A stretch of DNA of 64,000 nucleotides from Escherichia coli. Its GTDB lineage: Bacteria > Pseudomonadota > Gammaproteobacteria > Enterobacterales > Enterobacteriaceae. Below the pieces are notes generated by a model, which saw only the letters and a program-made list of their open reading frames with translations, ran no database searches and was not told the DNA's origin. The stretch's first letter is position 1; each line of letters starts with the position of its first letter. The position numbers were made by a program, and so were the translations under genes. The stretch lies in assembly GCF_022846255.1 (NCBI RefSeq), contig NZ_AP025682.1; one strand, written 5' to 3'. Below, piece by piece: positions 2,419 through 59,287 of the stretch.

Positions 2419-3345
2419 ATGAATTATTCTTTAAAGCAATTAAAGGTTTTCGTCACAGTAGCGCAGGAGAAAAGTTTTAGTCGTGCAGGAGAGCGTATCG
2501 GCCTGAGCCAGTCGGCAGTGAGTCACAGTGTGAAGGAGCTGGAAAATCATACTGGTGTTCGCCTGCTGGACAGAACCACGCGTGAAGTGGTGCTTACAGA
2601 TGCAGGGCAGCAGTTGGCTTTGCGTCTTGAGCGACTGCTGGATGAACTTAACAGCACGTTGCGCGATACCGGGCGTATGGGGCAACAACTGAGCGGAAAA
2701 GTTCGGGTCGCTGCCAGCCAGACCATTTCCGCGCATCTTATTCCGCAATGCATTGCTGAAAGCCATCGCCGCTATCCAGATATTCAGTTTGTCCTGCACG
2801 ATCGTCCGCAGCAGTGGGTGATGGAAAGTATTCGCCAGGGAGATGTCGATTTTGGCATCGTCATCGATCCAGGCCCAGTGGGCGATCTGCAATGTGAAGC
2901 GATTCTTTCCGAGCCTTTCTTTCTGCTTTGCCATCGCGATAGCGCTTTGGCCGTGGAAGATTATGTCCCCTGGCAGGCATTACAGGGAGCGAAATTGGTG
3001 TTGCAGGATTACGCGTCAGGCAGCCGACCGCTGATTGACGCAGCGCTGGCGCGCAACGGTATTCAGGCGAATATTGTGCAGGAGATTGGTCATCCGGCGA
3101 CGCTGTTCCCGATGGTAGCCGCAGGCATCGGCATCAGTATTCTTCCCGCACTGGCGCTACCATTGCCTGAAGGTAGCCCACTGGTGGTAAAGCGCATTAC
3201 GCCAGTGGTTGAACGCCAGTTGATGCTGGTGCGCAGGAAGAACCGTTCACTTTCCACCGCCGCTGAAGCGTTATGGGACGTAGTACGAGACCAGGGCAAT
3301 GCGCTAATGGCTGGGCGGGAAGGGGATCCGTTGTATCAGATATAG
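2419..3345 (+). CDS. yfeR: LysR-family transcriptional regulator
   Basis: 308-aa ORF with N-terminal HTH ([38 protein letters not shown]); position matches K-12. Confidence 0.85.
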
Positions 3346-51956: not shown

Positions 51957-52124
51957 TCAGGCGGCTTGGTGTTCTTTCAGTTCTTCAATTCGAATATTGG
52001 TTATGTCTGCATGTGCTATCTGCGCCCATATTATCCAGTGGTCATAGCAGTCGTTGATGTTTTCTGCTTCGATAACCCTGTTGAATGGCTCTCCATTCCA
52101 TTCTCCTGTGACTCGGAAGTGCAT
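51957..52124 (-). CDS. hypothetical small prophage protein (55 aa)
   Basis: Micro-ORF MHFRVTGEWNGEPFNRVIEAENINDCYDHWIIWAQIAHADITNIRIEELKEHQAA whose stop codon sits in a strong terminator hairpin (gccgcctgatggcggc followed by a T-run); absent from the track because it is under 60 aa. Confidence 0.4.
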   Translation of the reverse strand: MHFRVTGEWNGEPFNRVIEAENINDCYDHWIIWAQIAHADITNIRIEELKEHQAA

Positions 52125-52266: not shown

Positions 52267-52725
52267 TTATCTGGCAAGCATACGTTGTTGATGCTGTTTC
52301 ACAACACGTAAACGTAAGCTGTCATAGGCCCAATTGTAGAACATGGTATATGGTAGAAAGAAAAGGAAGAATCCTATCTCTAGTGTAAAAGCCTGTAACA
52401 GACTGACGCTCAGAATCCAGGACACCATAATGACGCCGATCGCGATAAATCCACTTTCAAAGCCCAAAGCATGGAATGCACGAACTTTTGCAGTTCGTTT
52501 TACCTGATGAGCAGGCCAGTAGCGATCAAATAGCATGTTATAGATGATATTCCAGATCATTGCAGTTGAAGCCAACAAGATAGTCATCCCGCCCATTTCG
52601 AGTATAGTTCGCTGCATTAACCATGCTGTGGTGGGGGCCAGAATCGCAGTGGCAATTCCTTCAAAGCAAATAGCGTGAAAAATACGCTCAAGTAACGATC
52701 TGTGTTGAATCGCATTATGTTGCAT
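52267..52725 (-). CDS. PACE-family efflux protein (AceI-like; two tandem bacterial-transmembrane-pair repeats)
   Basis: 152 aa, four predicted TM helices, with the signature repeated once per half: ERIFHAICFEG and VRAFHALGFESG (compare AceI RLIHAISYEG / VRILHAIGFEG). Confidence 0.8.
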   Translation of the reverse strand: MQHNAIQHRSLLERIFHAICFEGIATAILAPTTAWLMQRTILEMGGMTILLASTAMIWNIIYNMLFDRYWPAHQVKRTAKVRAFHALGFESGFIAIGVIMVSWILSVSLLQAFTLEIGFFLFFLPYTMFYNWAYDSLRLRVVKQHQQRMLAR

Positions 52726-52828
52726 AACTTACCTTTCTTACAGTTTCGACCGCGTTATGGAGTTGTGAGATTTTTATCGATTTATGTGATATATAAAAGA
52801 TAGATACCATCGAAAAAATTGATAGATT

Positions 52829-53713
52829 ATGCGTTACTCACTTGAAGCGTTAAGTACATTTGTTGAAGTGGTTTCCTGTGGCTCCTTTTCTGCTGCGGCA
52901 CGAAGATTACGTAAAAGTCAGTCCGCAGTCAGTACGTCAATTGCCAATCTTGAGGTCGATCTTGGTATATCATTATTCGATCGCTCTTCGCGAGAACCTG
53001 TGCTGACAGAGGAAGGAAAGAAAGTATTGAGTTACGTTCATGCGATTTTATCAGCCAGTGAACGTCTTGAGGAGGTGGCGGTTTCGCTTGCCGGAGAGAC
53101 TGAAGCTCGTCTGACGTTTGTGCTTTCCGATACCCTACACCCTGACTTATTAGAAGACATCATGGTGCAGTTTGATAGTCAGTTTCCACATACTGAGTTA
53201 GAGGTTTTAATTGGTGAGGATGTCGATGTCATCGATCTTTTGCAAAAAGAACGAGCGCAGATCGGCTTAATTGAGTCTCGGGAACACTACCCCACCGATA
53301 TTGGCTCAACCCGTTTACCGATGCAAGCGTGGATGGGCATTTATGTTTCGGCGTCACATCCACTGTCTGCAGAAAAAACAATCCAGCGGGAACAACTTCA
53401 TTCATGGCGAGAACTTCGTCTTAATACTTATATCGATAACCGGGAGATGATTGCCCGTGGACCGGTTTGGTCTGCACCTAACTATTTGTTGTTACTCAGT
53501 ATGGCCGTACAGGGATTTGGCTGGTGCTCTCTGCCCTGTGCTCTGGTTGAGGAGTTTGCAACAGAAAAACCGCTGGTTCAGCTCGACGTACCTGGCTGGC
53601 CAAAGGCAATTTCTATCGATCTGCTTTGGAATAAAAAATCGCCACCAGGCGCGGCTGGAAATTGGCTTAAGCATCATTTACAGCATATCAATGCCCCAAA
53701 TAGTCGAACTTAG
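52829..53713 (+). CDS. LysR-family transcriptional regulator (AceR-like), divergent from the PACE gene
   Basis: 294-aa ORF with N-terminal LysR HTH (LEALSTFVEVVSCGSFSAAARRLRKSQSAVSTSIANLE); 103-bp divergent intergenic region. Confidence 0.8.
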   Translation: MRYSLEALSTFVEVVSCGSFSAAARRLRKSQSAVSTSIANLEVDLGISLFDRSSREPVLTEEGKKVLSYVHAILSASERLEEVAVSLAGETEARLTFVLSDTLHPDLLEDIMVQFDSQFPHTELEVLIGEDVDVIDLLQKERAQIGLIESREHYPTDIGSTRLPMQAWMGIYVSASHPLSAEKTIQREQLHSWRELRLNTYIDNREMIARGPVWSAPNYLLLLSMAVQGFGWCSLPCALVEEFATEKPLVQLDVPGWPKAISIDLLWNKKSPPGAAGNWLKHHLQHINAPNSRT

Positions 53714-53834
53714 ATTAGTTAAAATATGGAATCCTGAAATAATCTCTGTTGATATGTGGAGCCATCTTCCAGGCTCCCACCTAAATCATGTTAGCAGTTC
53801 CATTTTTTTGATGATTTCCGCATGAGCATCATCG

Positions 53835-53918
53835 TTATCCCCAGCGACAAATTGAATACAAAACCAGTGCTACCGCCATTGCAATTCCTACCGTTGCGAA
53901 TGCTTCAGGCCAGCTCAT
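53835..53918 (-). CDS. hypothetical 27-aa hydrophobic peptide, start overlaps the stop of the upstream gene
   Basis: ATGA overlap with the 214-aa gene; encodes MSWPEAFATVGIAMAVALVLYSICRWG (single predicted TM helix). Confidence 0.25.
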   Translation of the reverse strand: MSWPEAFATVGIAMAVALVLYSICRWG

Positions 53919-54559
53919 TGATTCACCTCCTGCGGCGGTTCTGGTAGTGGTATCCAGAACAAGGCGTTCCCTAACCACGATAAAGTGCCGTCGCTCAACT
54001 CCACGTATTCCCCTTGCACCTGTCCTGCCATATACTCACCGTGCTTTGAATAAATTAAAATCCAATCATCTTGAGCGGGCATTCGCTCACTACAGCTTAT
54101 CCAACCACCCGGAGTTACCGGAGAGTTGCCGCGTTCTTTAATGTGCAAGCGAGGCTCACCATCTTTTGGTTCAGGCCACTGGCGCTCCATGTTGATCTTC
54201 AATTTATCTTCCATAGCAGCGGTAATTTCAGCATCGCTGATGCCAGCACGGCGCTGTGCATCCCACAACAGGAACTGCATATCAGCCCACTCGCTGAGAT
54301 CGTCTGGTTCGGCTGCGGCTTCCAGAGCCTCTTTTGAGAGGTGTTTCAGTGGACCAATGGGGCCAACGCAGCCAAATGTGGAGTCAGACCATTTGGCATG
54401 CTCGTGGCGAATCTGTTCGCGTTCCAGTGAGGCGAGAGCGATTTTAAATGCTGTAAGCATGTGTGCTTGATCGTTGTCGAGTCCGAATGGCATTTCATCT
54501 CGTGCTGACTCAATACTGGTAATCGTATTTTGTAGCCATTCTTTGGTAAAAGTGCTCAT
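53915..54559 (-). CDS. prophage protein with MazG-like nucleotide pyrophosphohydrolase N-terminal domain (DUF550-like) and DUF551-like C-terminal domain
   Basis: 214-aa ORF; N-terminal acidic helices (EALEAAAEPDDLSEWADMQFLLWDAQRR) and C-terminal DUF551-like segment; common in enterobacterial prophages. Confidence 0.55.
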   Translation of the reverse strand: MSTFTKEWLQNTITSIESARDEMPFGLDNDQAHMLTAFKIALASLEREQIRHEHAKWSDSTFGCVGPIGPLKHLSKEALEAAAEPDDLSEWADMQFLLWDAQRRAGISDAEITAAMEDKLKINMERQWPEPKDGEPRLHIKERGNSPVTPGGWISCSERMPAQDDWILIYSKHGEYMAGQVQGEYVELSDGTLSWLGNALFWIPLPEPPQEVNQ

Positions 54560-54927
54560 CGTAAAATATCCTCTATACTGGTAAGTCCTTCATTATTTAG
54601 CCAGATCATGGCGTCATCCGGCAACTTGCTGTCTGGTTTGGCGTTTTTGAGAGAGGAACTCAGTCGCTTAATCCACATTGTCACCTCAGTAATGCGCCTG
54701 TCTTTGCCTTCCAGCTCAACACGCAGCTTCCCTACTGTTAGCGCAATATCCTCGTTCTCCTGGTCGCGGCGTTTGATGTATTGCTGGTTTCTTTCCCGTT
54801 CATCCAGCAGTTCCAGCACAATCGATGGTGTTATCAATTTATGGAAAAGGTCTGCGTCAAATCCCCAGTCGTCATGCATTGCCTGCTCTGCCGCTTCACG
54901 CAGTGCCTGAGAGTTAATTTCGCTCAC
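54556..54927 (-). CDS. Ead/Ea22-like prophage early protein (123 aa)
   Basis: Acidic coiled-coil protein; start overlaps the stop of the upstream zinc-finger gene. Confidence 0.5.
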   Translation of the reverse strand: MSEINSQALREAAEQAMHDDWGFDADLFHKLITPSIVLELLDERERNQQYIKRRDQENEDIALTVGKLRVELEGKDRRITEVTMWIKRLSSSLKNAKPDSKLPDDAMIWLNNEGLTSIEDILR

Positions 54928-55145
54928 TTCGAACCTCTCTGTTTACTGATAAGCTCCAGATCTTCCTGGCAACTTGCACAAGTCCGACAACCCTGAACGG
55001 CCAGGCGTCTTCGCTCATCTATGGGATCGCCACACTCACAACAATGAGTGGCAGATACAGCCTGGTGGTTCAGACGACGCATTTTTATTGCTGTATTGCG
55101 CTGTAATTCTTCGATTTCTGATGCTGAATCAATGATGTCTGCCAT
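54924..55145 (-). CDS. TraR/DksA-family C4 zinc-finger protein (lambda Orf73-like)
   Basis: 73-aa ORF with CxxC-N17-CxxC (CCECG...CRTCASC). Confidence 0.65.
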   Translation of the reverse strand: MADIIDSASEIEELQRNTAIKMRRLNHQAVSATHCCECGDPIDERRRLAVQGCRTCASCQEDLELISKQRGSK

Positions 55146-58520: not shown

Positions 58521-59210
58521 CTACCCATGCTTCCTATATGTCTGCGGCATGCTCCCAATAACCTTACCGAAGATGAACACCCGGTTCATCTCGTCTTTCT
58601 CGATCGGGTCCCACGGTGAGTAGCTTTTGTTATCAGAGATGACCAGCAGCTTATCCTTCATCATTTGCAGGCGCTTTACATGGGCTGTGTCGTCGTACAG
58701 AAACGCATAGATACCATCACCGTCGAAAGATTTAACTGTGATATCAACGAACAGCAGATCACCTGGTTCGATCGTTCCTGACATGCTGTCACCACGCACG
58801 TTAATGATGCGGATATTTTCCGCCTTCCTACCATCGAACATGTGACGAGCATCGTCAAACGAGTACTCAACCGAGCGTAGAACTTCTACAAACTCACGGT
58901 TGATGACTCCCGGCCCAGCACTGACTTCTATATCAAGAACGTCAATCTTAAAGTATTTGGAATGGCTGACAGTTGATAGTATTGGTTGCACTGTACTGTC
59001 TGACATATTTCCAACGCCAGAAGATAACCATTCTGCGCGCACACCCAAAGCGTTCGCGATCTCCACGATTTTAGTTGTTTGATTAGCTTTCCCTGTTTCG
59101 ATTTTCTGAATAGCAGCCTGGCTAACCCCGACCAAATCCCCAAGCGCCTTTTGTGTAAGGCCTCGCGCTAATCTGGCTTCTTTAAGTCTTTCTGAGAGTG
59201 TTGTTTTCAT
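58521..59210 (-). CDS. cI: CI-like prophage repressor (XRE-type HTH plus S24 LexA-like peptidase domain)
   Basis: 229 aa from the Met at 59210 (track ORF extends to 59273); HTH LTQKALGDLVGVSQAAIQKIE; C-terminal GDSM...K autocleavage-type domain; start lacks a Shine-Dalgarno, consistent with a leaderless pRM-type mRNA. Confidence 0.85.
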   Translation of the reverse strand: MKTTLSERLKEARLARGLTQKALGDLVGVSQAAIQKIETGKANQTTKIVEIANALGVRAEWLSSGVGNMSDSTVQPILSTVSHSKYFKIDVLDIEVSAGPGVINREFVEVLRSVEYSFDDARHMFDGRKAENIRIINVRGDSMSGTIEPGDLLFVDITVKSFDGDGIYAFLYDDTAHVKRLQMMKDKLLVISDNKSYSPWDPIEKDEMNRVFIFGKVIGSMPQTYRKHG

Positions 59211-59216
59211 AGTCCA

Positions 59217-59287
59217 AATGTACAACCAAGGTTTTATTCCATCAAACGAAAATGGTTGTTGACTAAAAAACAACCATAGTTTTAATC
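59217..59287. promoter_or_regulatory. cI-cro divergent control region: candidate pRM (minus; -35 TTGATG, -10 TACATT), pR (plus; -35 TTGACT, -10 TTAATC) and operator palindrome ATGGTTGTT-N8-AACAACCAT
   Basis: 26-bp palindrome 59252..59277 overlapping the pR -35; pRM -10 ends 7 bp before the cI ATG. Confidence 0.5.

Follow-up and report, generated by a model that had tools for sequence, protein, structure and literature searches.

A stretch of 64,000 nucleotides (nt) from Escherichia coli (contig NZ_AP025682.1; hereafter, the window) includes a lambdoid prophage in which the gene for a 214-amino-acid (aa) protein overlaps, at its stop codon, the start of an open reading frame (ORF) of only 27 codons, both on the minus strand. 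The locus raises the question of whether so short a frame (hereafter, the micro-ORF) is a gene at all and, if it is, whether it belongs with the MazG-like gene in front of it. An earlier note on this DNA had described the two frames, in agreement with the sequence and the ORF list, and had allowed that the smaller one might have arisen by chance. We propose, as the probable reading, that the two are neighbours in the leftward early (pL) operon, in which an EaA-type MazG-like gene is followed by a genuine, portable gene for a 27-codon membrane peptide, and that both are co-translated from one mRNA.

The micro-ORF (MSWPEAFATVGIAMAVALVLYSICRWG, followed by TAA; 53835–53918, minus strand) starts with an ATG at 53918–53916, stops with the TAA at 53837–53835, and encodes a predicted single-pass membrane peptide. 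Its start and the TGA stop of the 214-aa gene (53917–53915) share the tetranucleotide ATGA (53915–53918, minus strand), and a Shine-Dalgarno sequence, AGGAGG (53926–53931, minus strand), lies 7 nt before the ATG, within the codons for Q-E-V at the end of the 214-aa gene. The hydrophobicity of its best 17-residue stretch is equalled or exceeded by two of the 311 ATG-initiated ORFs of 20–40 aa in the window. Taken alone, the window makes a case against a chance ORF that is only suggestive.

We analyzed conservation of the frame in two independent ascertainments. In the first, viral contigs were searched with a DNA pattern made of the first seven codons only, ATGA included, which returned ~130 copies with 79 unique 90-nt sequences; more than 100 distinct sequence contexts of the micro-ORF were found in phage contigs. 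The stop fell exactly at codon 28 in 55 of 60 unique core sequences, with TAA and TGA both in use, and its position was kept even though nucleotide identity drops to 61–66%. Across codons 8–27, which the pattern left unconstrained, parsimony placed 45, 33 and 98 changes at codon positions 1, 2 and 3, respectively (chi-square test, P = 1.4 × 10−9), and G11 showed synonymous changes only. The second ascertainment used a pattern of the last seven codons only and yielded 85 family contexts, 75 of which had an ATG at the expected place and exactly 27 codons; the other intact forms were one longer frame, two with GTG starts and two with in-frame deletions, and five were broken (four by an amber codon at codon 3 and one by a frameshift). 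Codons 2–20, unconstrained in this set, again changed most often at the third position (43, 30 and 69 changes at positions 1, 2 and 3; P = 2 × 10−4), and substitutions within the helix were conservative (V, I, L, M, A, T). The ratio of nonsynonymous to synonymous polymorphism (pN/pS) of the sense frame was 0.41. Among 5.8 billion proteins, a search with the GTG-extended form of the peptide found 15 entries with variants of it; their upstream extensions differ, and one carries an in-frame insertion of two codons in the peptide.

The boundaries of this conservation are sharp. When 75 unique contexts were aligned on the ATG, mean column identity was 0.6–0.95 from −18 to +89 and ~0.33 upstream of −30 and from +90 on, so that conservation forms an island coextensive with the ribosome-binding site and the ORF. 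With a 116-nt query, many of the matches in E. coli likewise cover precisely positions 28–111, from ATG to stop. In the sense frame both the ATG and the stop are fixed, and a Shine-Dalgarno-like tetramer is found at −17 to −5 in 110 of 123 unique contexts. Because of this island from ribosome-binding site to stop, the third-position excess and the fixed length, the micro-ORF cannot be read as a chance frame, and the comparative data show it, as far as sequence can, to be a real protein-coding gene under purifying selection, modular and widespread.

What lies upstream of the gene varies widely. We found 101 distinct proteins in front of the micro-ORF, all ending at ATGA and many of them without DUF550; they include proteins with DUF551, with and without DUF550, Ead/Ea22-like proteins ending in ...EDILR, and a 131-aa zinc-ribbon protein. 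In nearly all contexts the start overlaps the stop codon of a long ORF upstream, with the caveat that the first pattern itself contained ATGA; copies retrieved with the C-terminal pattern also carry the ATG at the expected place. The stop/start overlap noticed at this locus is, together with the Shine-Dalgarno sequence, the rule across contexts. The earlier note had taken the overlap to suggest coupled expression; a specific link with the MazG-like gene is not borne out, and because so many different proteins precede the micro-gene we regard it as a portable cassette rather than the partner of the MazG-like enzyme. Downstream, no same-strand gene lies within 120 nt in 48 of the 75 contexts, and in others a gene starts 2–4 nt past the stop. 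In 933W (locus L206, 1501–1950; sokW/mokW/hokW) and in E. coli ABU 83972 (locus L219, 2501–2951; hokD) the micro-ORF lies ~100–200 nt upstream of a hok/sok-type locus. This slot, and its stop/start overlap, can also be taken by different small hydrophobic ORFs, namely a 29-aa peptide (MMPPVKVVIITLVMIVIARIMSGEIGWIW) and a 40-aa protein of phrog_5525 (MNKCNALLYAMVIGFGLAAGIRVYIAWESLINLAWSAIRG); their loci are L027, L028, L033, L036 and L040, directly after the EaA-like stop, and 2823–2945 (minus strand) of L001. It seems that this end of the operon repeatedly carries small membrane peptides.

The larger gene (53915–54559, minus strand) starts MSTFTKEW and encodes an EaA-type mosaic protein composed of variable N-terminal helices, DUF550 and DUF551. 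The earlier note had called it MazG-like with DUF550 and DUF551, and both domains were recovered with Pfam: PF04447 (DUF550; residues 50–145, 54125–54412, minus strand) at 142.2 bits against a cut-off of 23 (E = 6.4 × 10−42; profile positions 1–96 of 97), and PF04448 (DUF551; residues 152–210, 53930–54106, minus strand) at 38.3 bits against a cut-off of 22 (E = 2.4 × 10−9). The MazG-like domain is real, but its position is central and not N-terminal as had been stated. PF04447 is the dATP/dGTP pyrophosphohydrolase family, formerly DUF550, a MazG-like all-alpha nucleoside triphosphate pyrophosphohydrolase. An intact metal-binding motif of the form ExxE...ExxD (E77-A-L-E80 and E90-W-A-D93; nt 54281–54331) can be read from the sequence, is invariant in 24 relatives, and aligns with the EEIGE...EVAD metal-binding segments of MazZ (PDB 7ODY), the sole solved structure recovered by a PDB sequence search, in a marginal match (E = 0.65). 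In Acinetobacter phage SH-Ab 15497, DUF550 has been shown by experiment to hydrolyse dATP and dGTP, yielding monophosphates; it is the counterpart of MazZ, the MazG-like enzyme of phages whose genomes contain 2-aminoadenine, and the activity has been demonstrated only in these two enzymes (PMC12884076, PMC8342488). The pyrophosphohydrolase activity that had been suggested for the 214-aa protein is consistent with its intact motif and with this enzymology, and the core of the protein is, by prediction, a MazG-like deoxynucleoside triphosphate pyrophosphohydrolase fused to DUF551. No purZ or datZ (no PurA-like or HD-domain gene) was found among the scanned neighbours of the 214-aa gene, and for this reason we do not consider it a Z-genome enzyme.

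Variation along the protein is uneven. In the 24 relatives the DUF550 core is almost invariant, whereas the N-terminal ~45 residues and the central part of DUF551 vary freely; the edges of DUF551 are conserved (WISCSERMP, and FWIPLPEPP in the window or HWMPLPEPP in most relatives) around a hypervariable middle. The best 150 matches in a library of representatives at 50% identity were at least 75% identical in the DUF550 domain, in proteins of 111–477 aa, and no more divergent DUF550 relatives were present among the listed matches of two large protein searches, whose identity in the domain never fell below 75%. The pattern of DUF550 plus DUF551, seen also in loci L006–L085, looks like that of an enzyme kept constant and attached to a binding module that diversifies. 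RefSeq names the product “dATP/dGTP pyrophosphohydrolase domain-containing protein” and phage records name its homologues “EaA protein”; it is an ordinary, already-named kind of prophage protein.

Given that the micro-ORF is a gene, how would it be expressed, and what would its product do? It is a self-contained module that brings its own Shine-Dalgarno sequence, ATG, 27 codons and stop, with the Shine-Dalgarno sequence lodged in the last codons of whichever gene lies upstream and the ATG overlapping the stop of that gene. This arrangement, with the ribosome-binding site in the upstream gene tail and ATG and stop overlapping, argues for translation from the same mRNA. Initiation would be direct and probably also reinforced by termination-reinitiation coupling, as expected from general knowledge of overlapping stop/start pairs, and the peptide would be made early, from the pL transcript. 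The product is most likely a single-pass inner-membrane peptide, judging from its layout of a head M-x-W-P-E/D-A-F, a helix rich in Ala, Val and Gly, and a C-R-W-G tail. One transmembrane helix is predicted from F7 to C24, flanked by W3 and W26, and E5 and R25, under the positive-inside rule, suggest an N-out, C-in orientation. The helix contains small-xxx-small spacings (G11xxxA15 and A13xxxA17), which are typical of helix-helix packing. Because of the predicted helix, its topology and this spacing, we favour a role in packing or modulation, with pore action less likely than packing against another membrane protein. More specifically, the peptide could serve as a small modulator, binding an inner-membrane protein of the host or the phage in the early phase of infection or induction, a proposal we advance tentatively.

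The main functional rival, which we consider unlikely, accepts the peptide as real and takes it to be a membrane-damaging toxin of the Hok, TisB and DinQ class or of Kil type, tolerated because lysogens keep pL repressed. In size and hydrophobicity the peptide is similar to TisB and DinQ, it lies close to hok/sok in 933W and E. coli ABU 83972, and the codon-3 amber alleles could be the outcome of selection against leaky expression. Of these alleles, TGG to TAG in five contexts (loci L002, 3075–3083, L242, L243, L249 and L262), three can be explained by mutation bias: they lie in ACCTGG, which holds a CCWGG site of the Dcm methylase, and at such sites deamination of 5-methylcytosine on the opposite strand converts CCTGG to CCTAG. 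The recurrence of codon-3 ambers may come from a hotspot of mutation, from selection acting on the peptide, or from a combination of the two. The strong Shine-Dalgarno sequence and the position in an operon are unlike those of tightly gated type I toxins, no antisense RNA or promoter of its own is evident, the helix has no charged residue, and up to nine copies per genome are tolerated.

Three further explanations would deny that the micro-ORF makes a peptide of its own. The length of 27 codons, the absence from RefSeq annotation and the broken state of some copies would suit a frame left open by chance in the non-coding spacer that ends the operon; we hold this to be very improbable, for a spacer would not be expected to confine conservation to the ribosome-binding site and the ORF, to show a third-position excess in two independent ascertainments, to keep its stop position at the nucleotide identities given above, to tolerate indels when they are in frame, or to carry a Shine-Dalgarno-like motif in 110 of 123 contexts. 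The chance origin that the earlier note had left open is ruled out by these comparative data, and the micro-ORF frame proved to be conserved in relatives, with third-position excess and a conserved length. Alternatively, the frame could be the C-terminal membrane anchor of the upstream protein, reached by a programmed −1 frameshift, since it is open upstream of the ATG for 20 codons in the window (a 47-aa ORF starting with GTG) and for 49 in L001. The upstream open frame has a median of only 18 codons and is 0–5 codons long in some contexts, inspection of the last ~25 codons of the 214-aa gene revealed no in-phase slippery heptamer, the ATG and Shine-Dalgarno sequence are conserved, and the upstream proteins are unrelated to each other; a frameshifted anchor is extremely improbable.

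Somewhat less remote, though still quite improbable, is the explanation that the 84 nt are kept as a small RNA, a terminator, a recombination site or an opposite-strand gene. Recombination sites can coincide with mosaic boundaries, and one antisense frame, whose wobble positions coincide with those of the sense frame, resembles the latter in its statistics. Rfam gave no match in 53300–55000, RNA folding detected no excess structure at the micro-ORF (z = 0.22), and a promoter and terminator scan around it returned nothing, with no promoter-like site on the minus strand. A 41-aa ORF on the plus strand (53822–53947) was closed in 9 of 55 sequences and was rejected as a real gene on its pN/pS of 1.86. 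For the wobble-coincident antisense frame, a start codon precedes the footprint in no more than 19 of 75 contexts, and the frame varies in length. Three-base periodicity, a hydrophobic helix, and a conserved ATG and stop fit a protein encoded on the sense strand.

Several observations weigh against the reading that we prefer, a genuine peptide gene co-translated with an EaA-type gene. A pN/pS of 0.41 indicates moderate, not strong, constraint, and variants W3R and P4S/T make the N-terminal motif less rigid than the first search implied. The antisense frame just discussed has the same pN/pS and is open in 54 of 55 sequences, and the only ground on which we reject it is its lack of a consistent start codon. 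The micro-gene is dispensable: to the recurrent codon-3 ambers and the frameshift are added truncated and degenerate alleles, as 80 loci fetched via relatives of the 214-aa protein held several distinct intact peptide alleles, one truncated and one degenerate (five loci), and the copy in the Shigella phage 75/02 Stx carries both the codon-3 amber and a 1-nt deletion. No such peptide is listed in the supplements of the ribosome-profiling studies of enterohaemorrhagic E. coli that were searched (pL genes are repressed in uninduced lysogens). On the side of the larger gene, an AlphaFold2 model built from the 24-sequence alignment was unusable, with a mean predicted local distance difference test score (pLDDT) of 46.9 and values of ~30 across the domain; this low-confidence model places helices at 76–80, 88–104 and 109–124.

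We examined how widely the micro-gene is distributed and whether it has been recorded. Matches were present in 1751 of 5426 complete E. coli genomes, often in several places (4382 places in total, up to nine per genome, 164 on plasmids), yet the gene, conserved and mobile as it is, is omitted in every RefSeq record inspected. At the protein level 94 phage records match, including 933W, VT2-Sakai, VT1-Sakai, Stx2 II, Min27, BP-4795, P1-like phages and genomes of 121–134 kb such as Av-05. Where genomes are identical to the window or nearly so, the NCBI annotation includes the 214-aa gene and never the micro-ORF, and in 933W, Stx2 II, ArgO145, VT1-Sakai and E. coli ABU 83972 the only annotation under the match is the 4-nt tail of the upstream gene; annotation pipelines miss the micro-gene because it is so short. 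A few GenBank records list a 27-aa product as “hypothetical protein” or “bacteriophage protein” (e.g., AOM45384.1 and ETJ68712.1). No significant family for the peptides was found in Pfam or NCBIfam (best E = 0.0015–0.25, below curated cut-offs; PTR2 of the POT family at 0.0015 for one variant and DUF883_C at 0.04 in Pfam, KdpF at 0.024 in NCBIfam) or in PHROGs (phrog_38566 at 0.0065 and phrog_4612 at 0.014–0.03), and these weak matches look like matches of hydrophobic composition. A 90% cluster of the peptide includes 121-aa DUF551 proteins, but these end in ...PPQEVNQ, so that an apparent DUF551-peptide fusion was rejected as a likely clustering artefact. The peptide sequence was not found in a literature search, and the exo-xis literature searched makes no mention of a small transmembrane ORF. 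In K-12, the micro-ORF is absent from the Rac and CPS-53 prophages; ypdJ, which overlaps the end of yfdT there, was considered and found to be unrelated. The micro-gene is a new, uncurated small phage membrane protein gene.

The family as defined in this analysis comprises peptides of 23–29 aa with the head M-x-W-P-E/D-A-F, one hydrophobic helix, a basic/aromatic C-terminus, their own Shine-Dalgarno sequence and a start that overlaps the upstream stop, and the window copy shows every feature of this “MxWPEAF...CRWG” family. Relatives of 23–25 aa that keep this head and a single helix are found in a contig where the preceding EaA-like gene matches Salmonella P22-type phages, in a contig related to Rhizobium/Sinorhizobium phages, and twice in Nitratireductor. 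The pattern of head and helix seen in E. coli recurs in the 25-aa peptides MNWPEAFAAVGFAFAVALMVWSVRR and MSWPDAFANVGGAIAFVAVVWILFR; their loci are in Nitratireductor aquimarinus (L213, 6587–6664, and L212, 508–585) and in the rhizobial-phage-like contig (L127). The Nitratireductor peptide shares with the E. coli family 8 of the 16 positions not fixed by the pattern and is likely homologous to it, and the 25-aa alphaproteobacterial peptides may be distant family members. For another distant member (L126) no match was found among phage records. A 19-base pattern used to scan the genome collection gave seven matches, ~3 of them due to chance, and is too restrictive for taxonomic breadth. We consider it doubtful, if conceivable, that all of these belong to one large family of phage micro-proteins (~23–29 aa, with MxWP(E/D)AF head, helix and basic/aromatic tail) missed below the length limits of gene callers, with members in large myovirus-type genomes (Av-05) and possibly rhizobial phages, and that by binding a host inner-membrane protein such peptides could contribute to exo-xis phenotypes credited to annotated ORFs. 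If this were true, the peptide could contribute to lysis-lysogeny bias, cell-cycle effects or superinfection exclusion.

The two genes are at the far end of the leftward pL operon, in the exo-xis region of a lambdoid prophage, 1 kb of which, when tested, matched environmental E. coli chromosomes at 100%. Transcription of the lambdoid exo-xis region is from pL (PMC10834534). By Pfam and the ORF list, the leftward order is a CI-like repressor (58521–59273), Gam, Bet/RecT, Exo, DUF1317, DUF1382, a 93-aa ORF, a DksA/TraR zinc finger, an Ead/Ea22-like protein, the 214-aa gene and the micro-ORF. The Ead/Ea22-like gene (123 aa; 54556–54927, minus strand) is directly upstream of the 214-aa gene, and its stop overlaps the start of that gene in a second ATGA (54556–54559); in other phages its ...EDILR* junction runs straight into the micro-ORF. 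This gene is short in the window, and its counterpart in strain SC477 is a partial pseudogene according to RefSeq; exo is intact in the window (226 aa) and frameshifted in SC477. Past the micro-ORF, a remnant of a 77-aa gene (53786–53833, minus strand) begins with an ATG 2 nt past its stop and retains, owing to an internal deletion, only that ATG and the last ~15 codons, out of frame; the intact gene (MGKITFVVEFED...AEIIQKMELLTH) comes after the micro-ORF in P1-like phages such as vB_EcoM-813R1. Beyond it, cargo at 52267–53713, consisting of a LysR regulator (plus strand) and a PACE (chlorhexidine-type) efflux transporter (minus strand), separates the micro-ORF from a 55-aa gene, MHFRVTGEW... 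(51957–52124, minus strand), which sits after EaA-like genes in other phages (L025 and L078).

We judge the micro-gene to be of moderate interest, since it is widespread, unannotated in RefSeq and in the phage records inspected, and located in the exo-xis region of Shiga toxin (Stx) phages, a region actively studied for its effect on prophage induction and, through it, on the release of toxin. With a ribosome-binding site hidden in the end of the upstream gene, it illustrates how so small a gene can move between phage operons and stay expressed, and it offers small-protein research a concrete, easily tested candidate.

Comparison with known systems places the two genes in different company. 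The 214-aa protein resembles the DUF550/MazZ enzymes (the DUF5664-DUF550 protein of SH-Ab 15497 and MazZ of cyanophage S-2L, 7ODY) in PF04447, in the ExxE...ExxD motif and in its place in a phage early operon. Unlike the SH-Ab 15497 enzyme, it joins DUF550 to DUF551 and a variable N-terminus in place of DUF5664, and unlike MazZ, to which its direct similarity is marginal, it has no purZ/datZ or Z-genome pathway in its neighbourhood. Its slot between exo and xis/int, its DUF551 and its mosaic architecture are those of P22 EaA, Ea22 variant 2 of Stx phages and YfdS of K-12 CPS-53, although YfdS and Ea22_V2 lack DUF550 and no micro-ORF follows yfdS/yfdT in CPS-53. The micro-peptide, for its part, is like the KdpF, AcrZ, MgtS and CydX class in having fewer than 50 aa and one hydrophobic helix and in being often unannotated, and the gene is like theirs in its operon-end position and its tight or overlapping junctions, whereas the peptide has no significant sequence similarity to any curated family of small membrane proteins. 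It is also like the 40-aa phrog_5525 protein, a small hydrophobic ORF after EaA-like genes in the same slot. With Hok, TisB and DinQ it shares the features of a short, hydrophobic, predicted inner-membrane peptide that is prophage-borne and, in some phages, near hok/sok; the Sok RNA in the 933W annotation is that of hokW, a separate gene downstream, and not of the micro-ORF. Unlike the genes of those toxins, for which control by antisense RNA, their own promoter or mRNA fold-back has no counterpart detected here, the micro-gene is part of a long operon and has a strong Shine-Dalgarno sequence.

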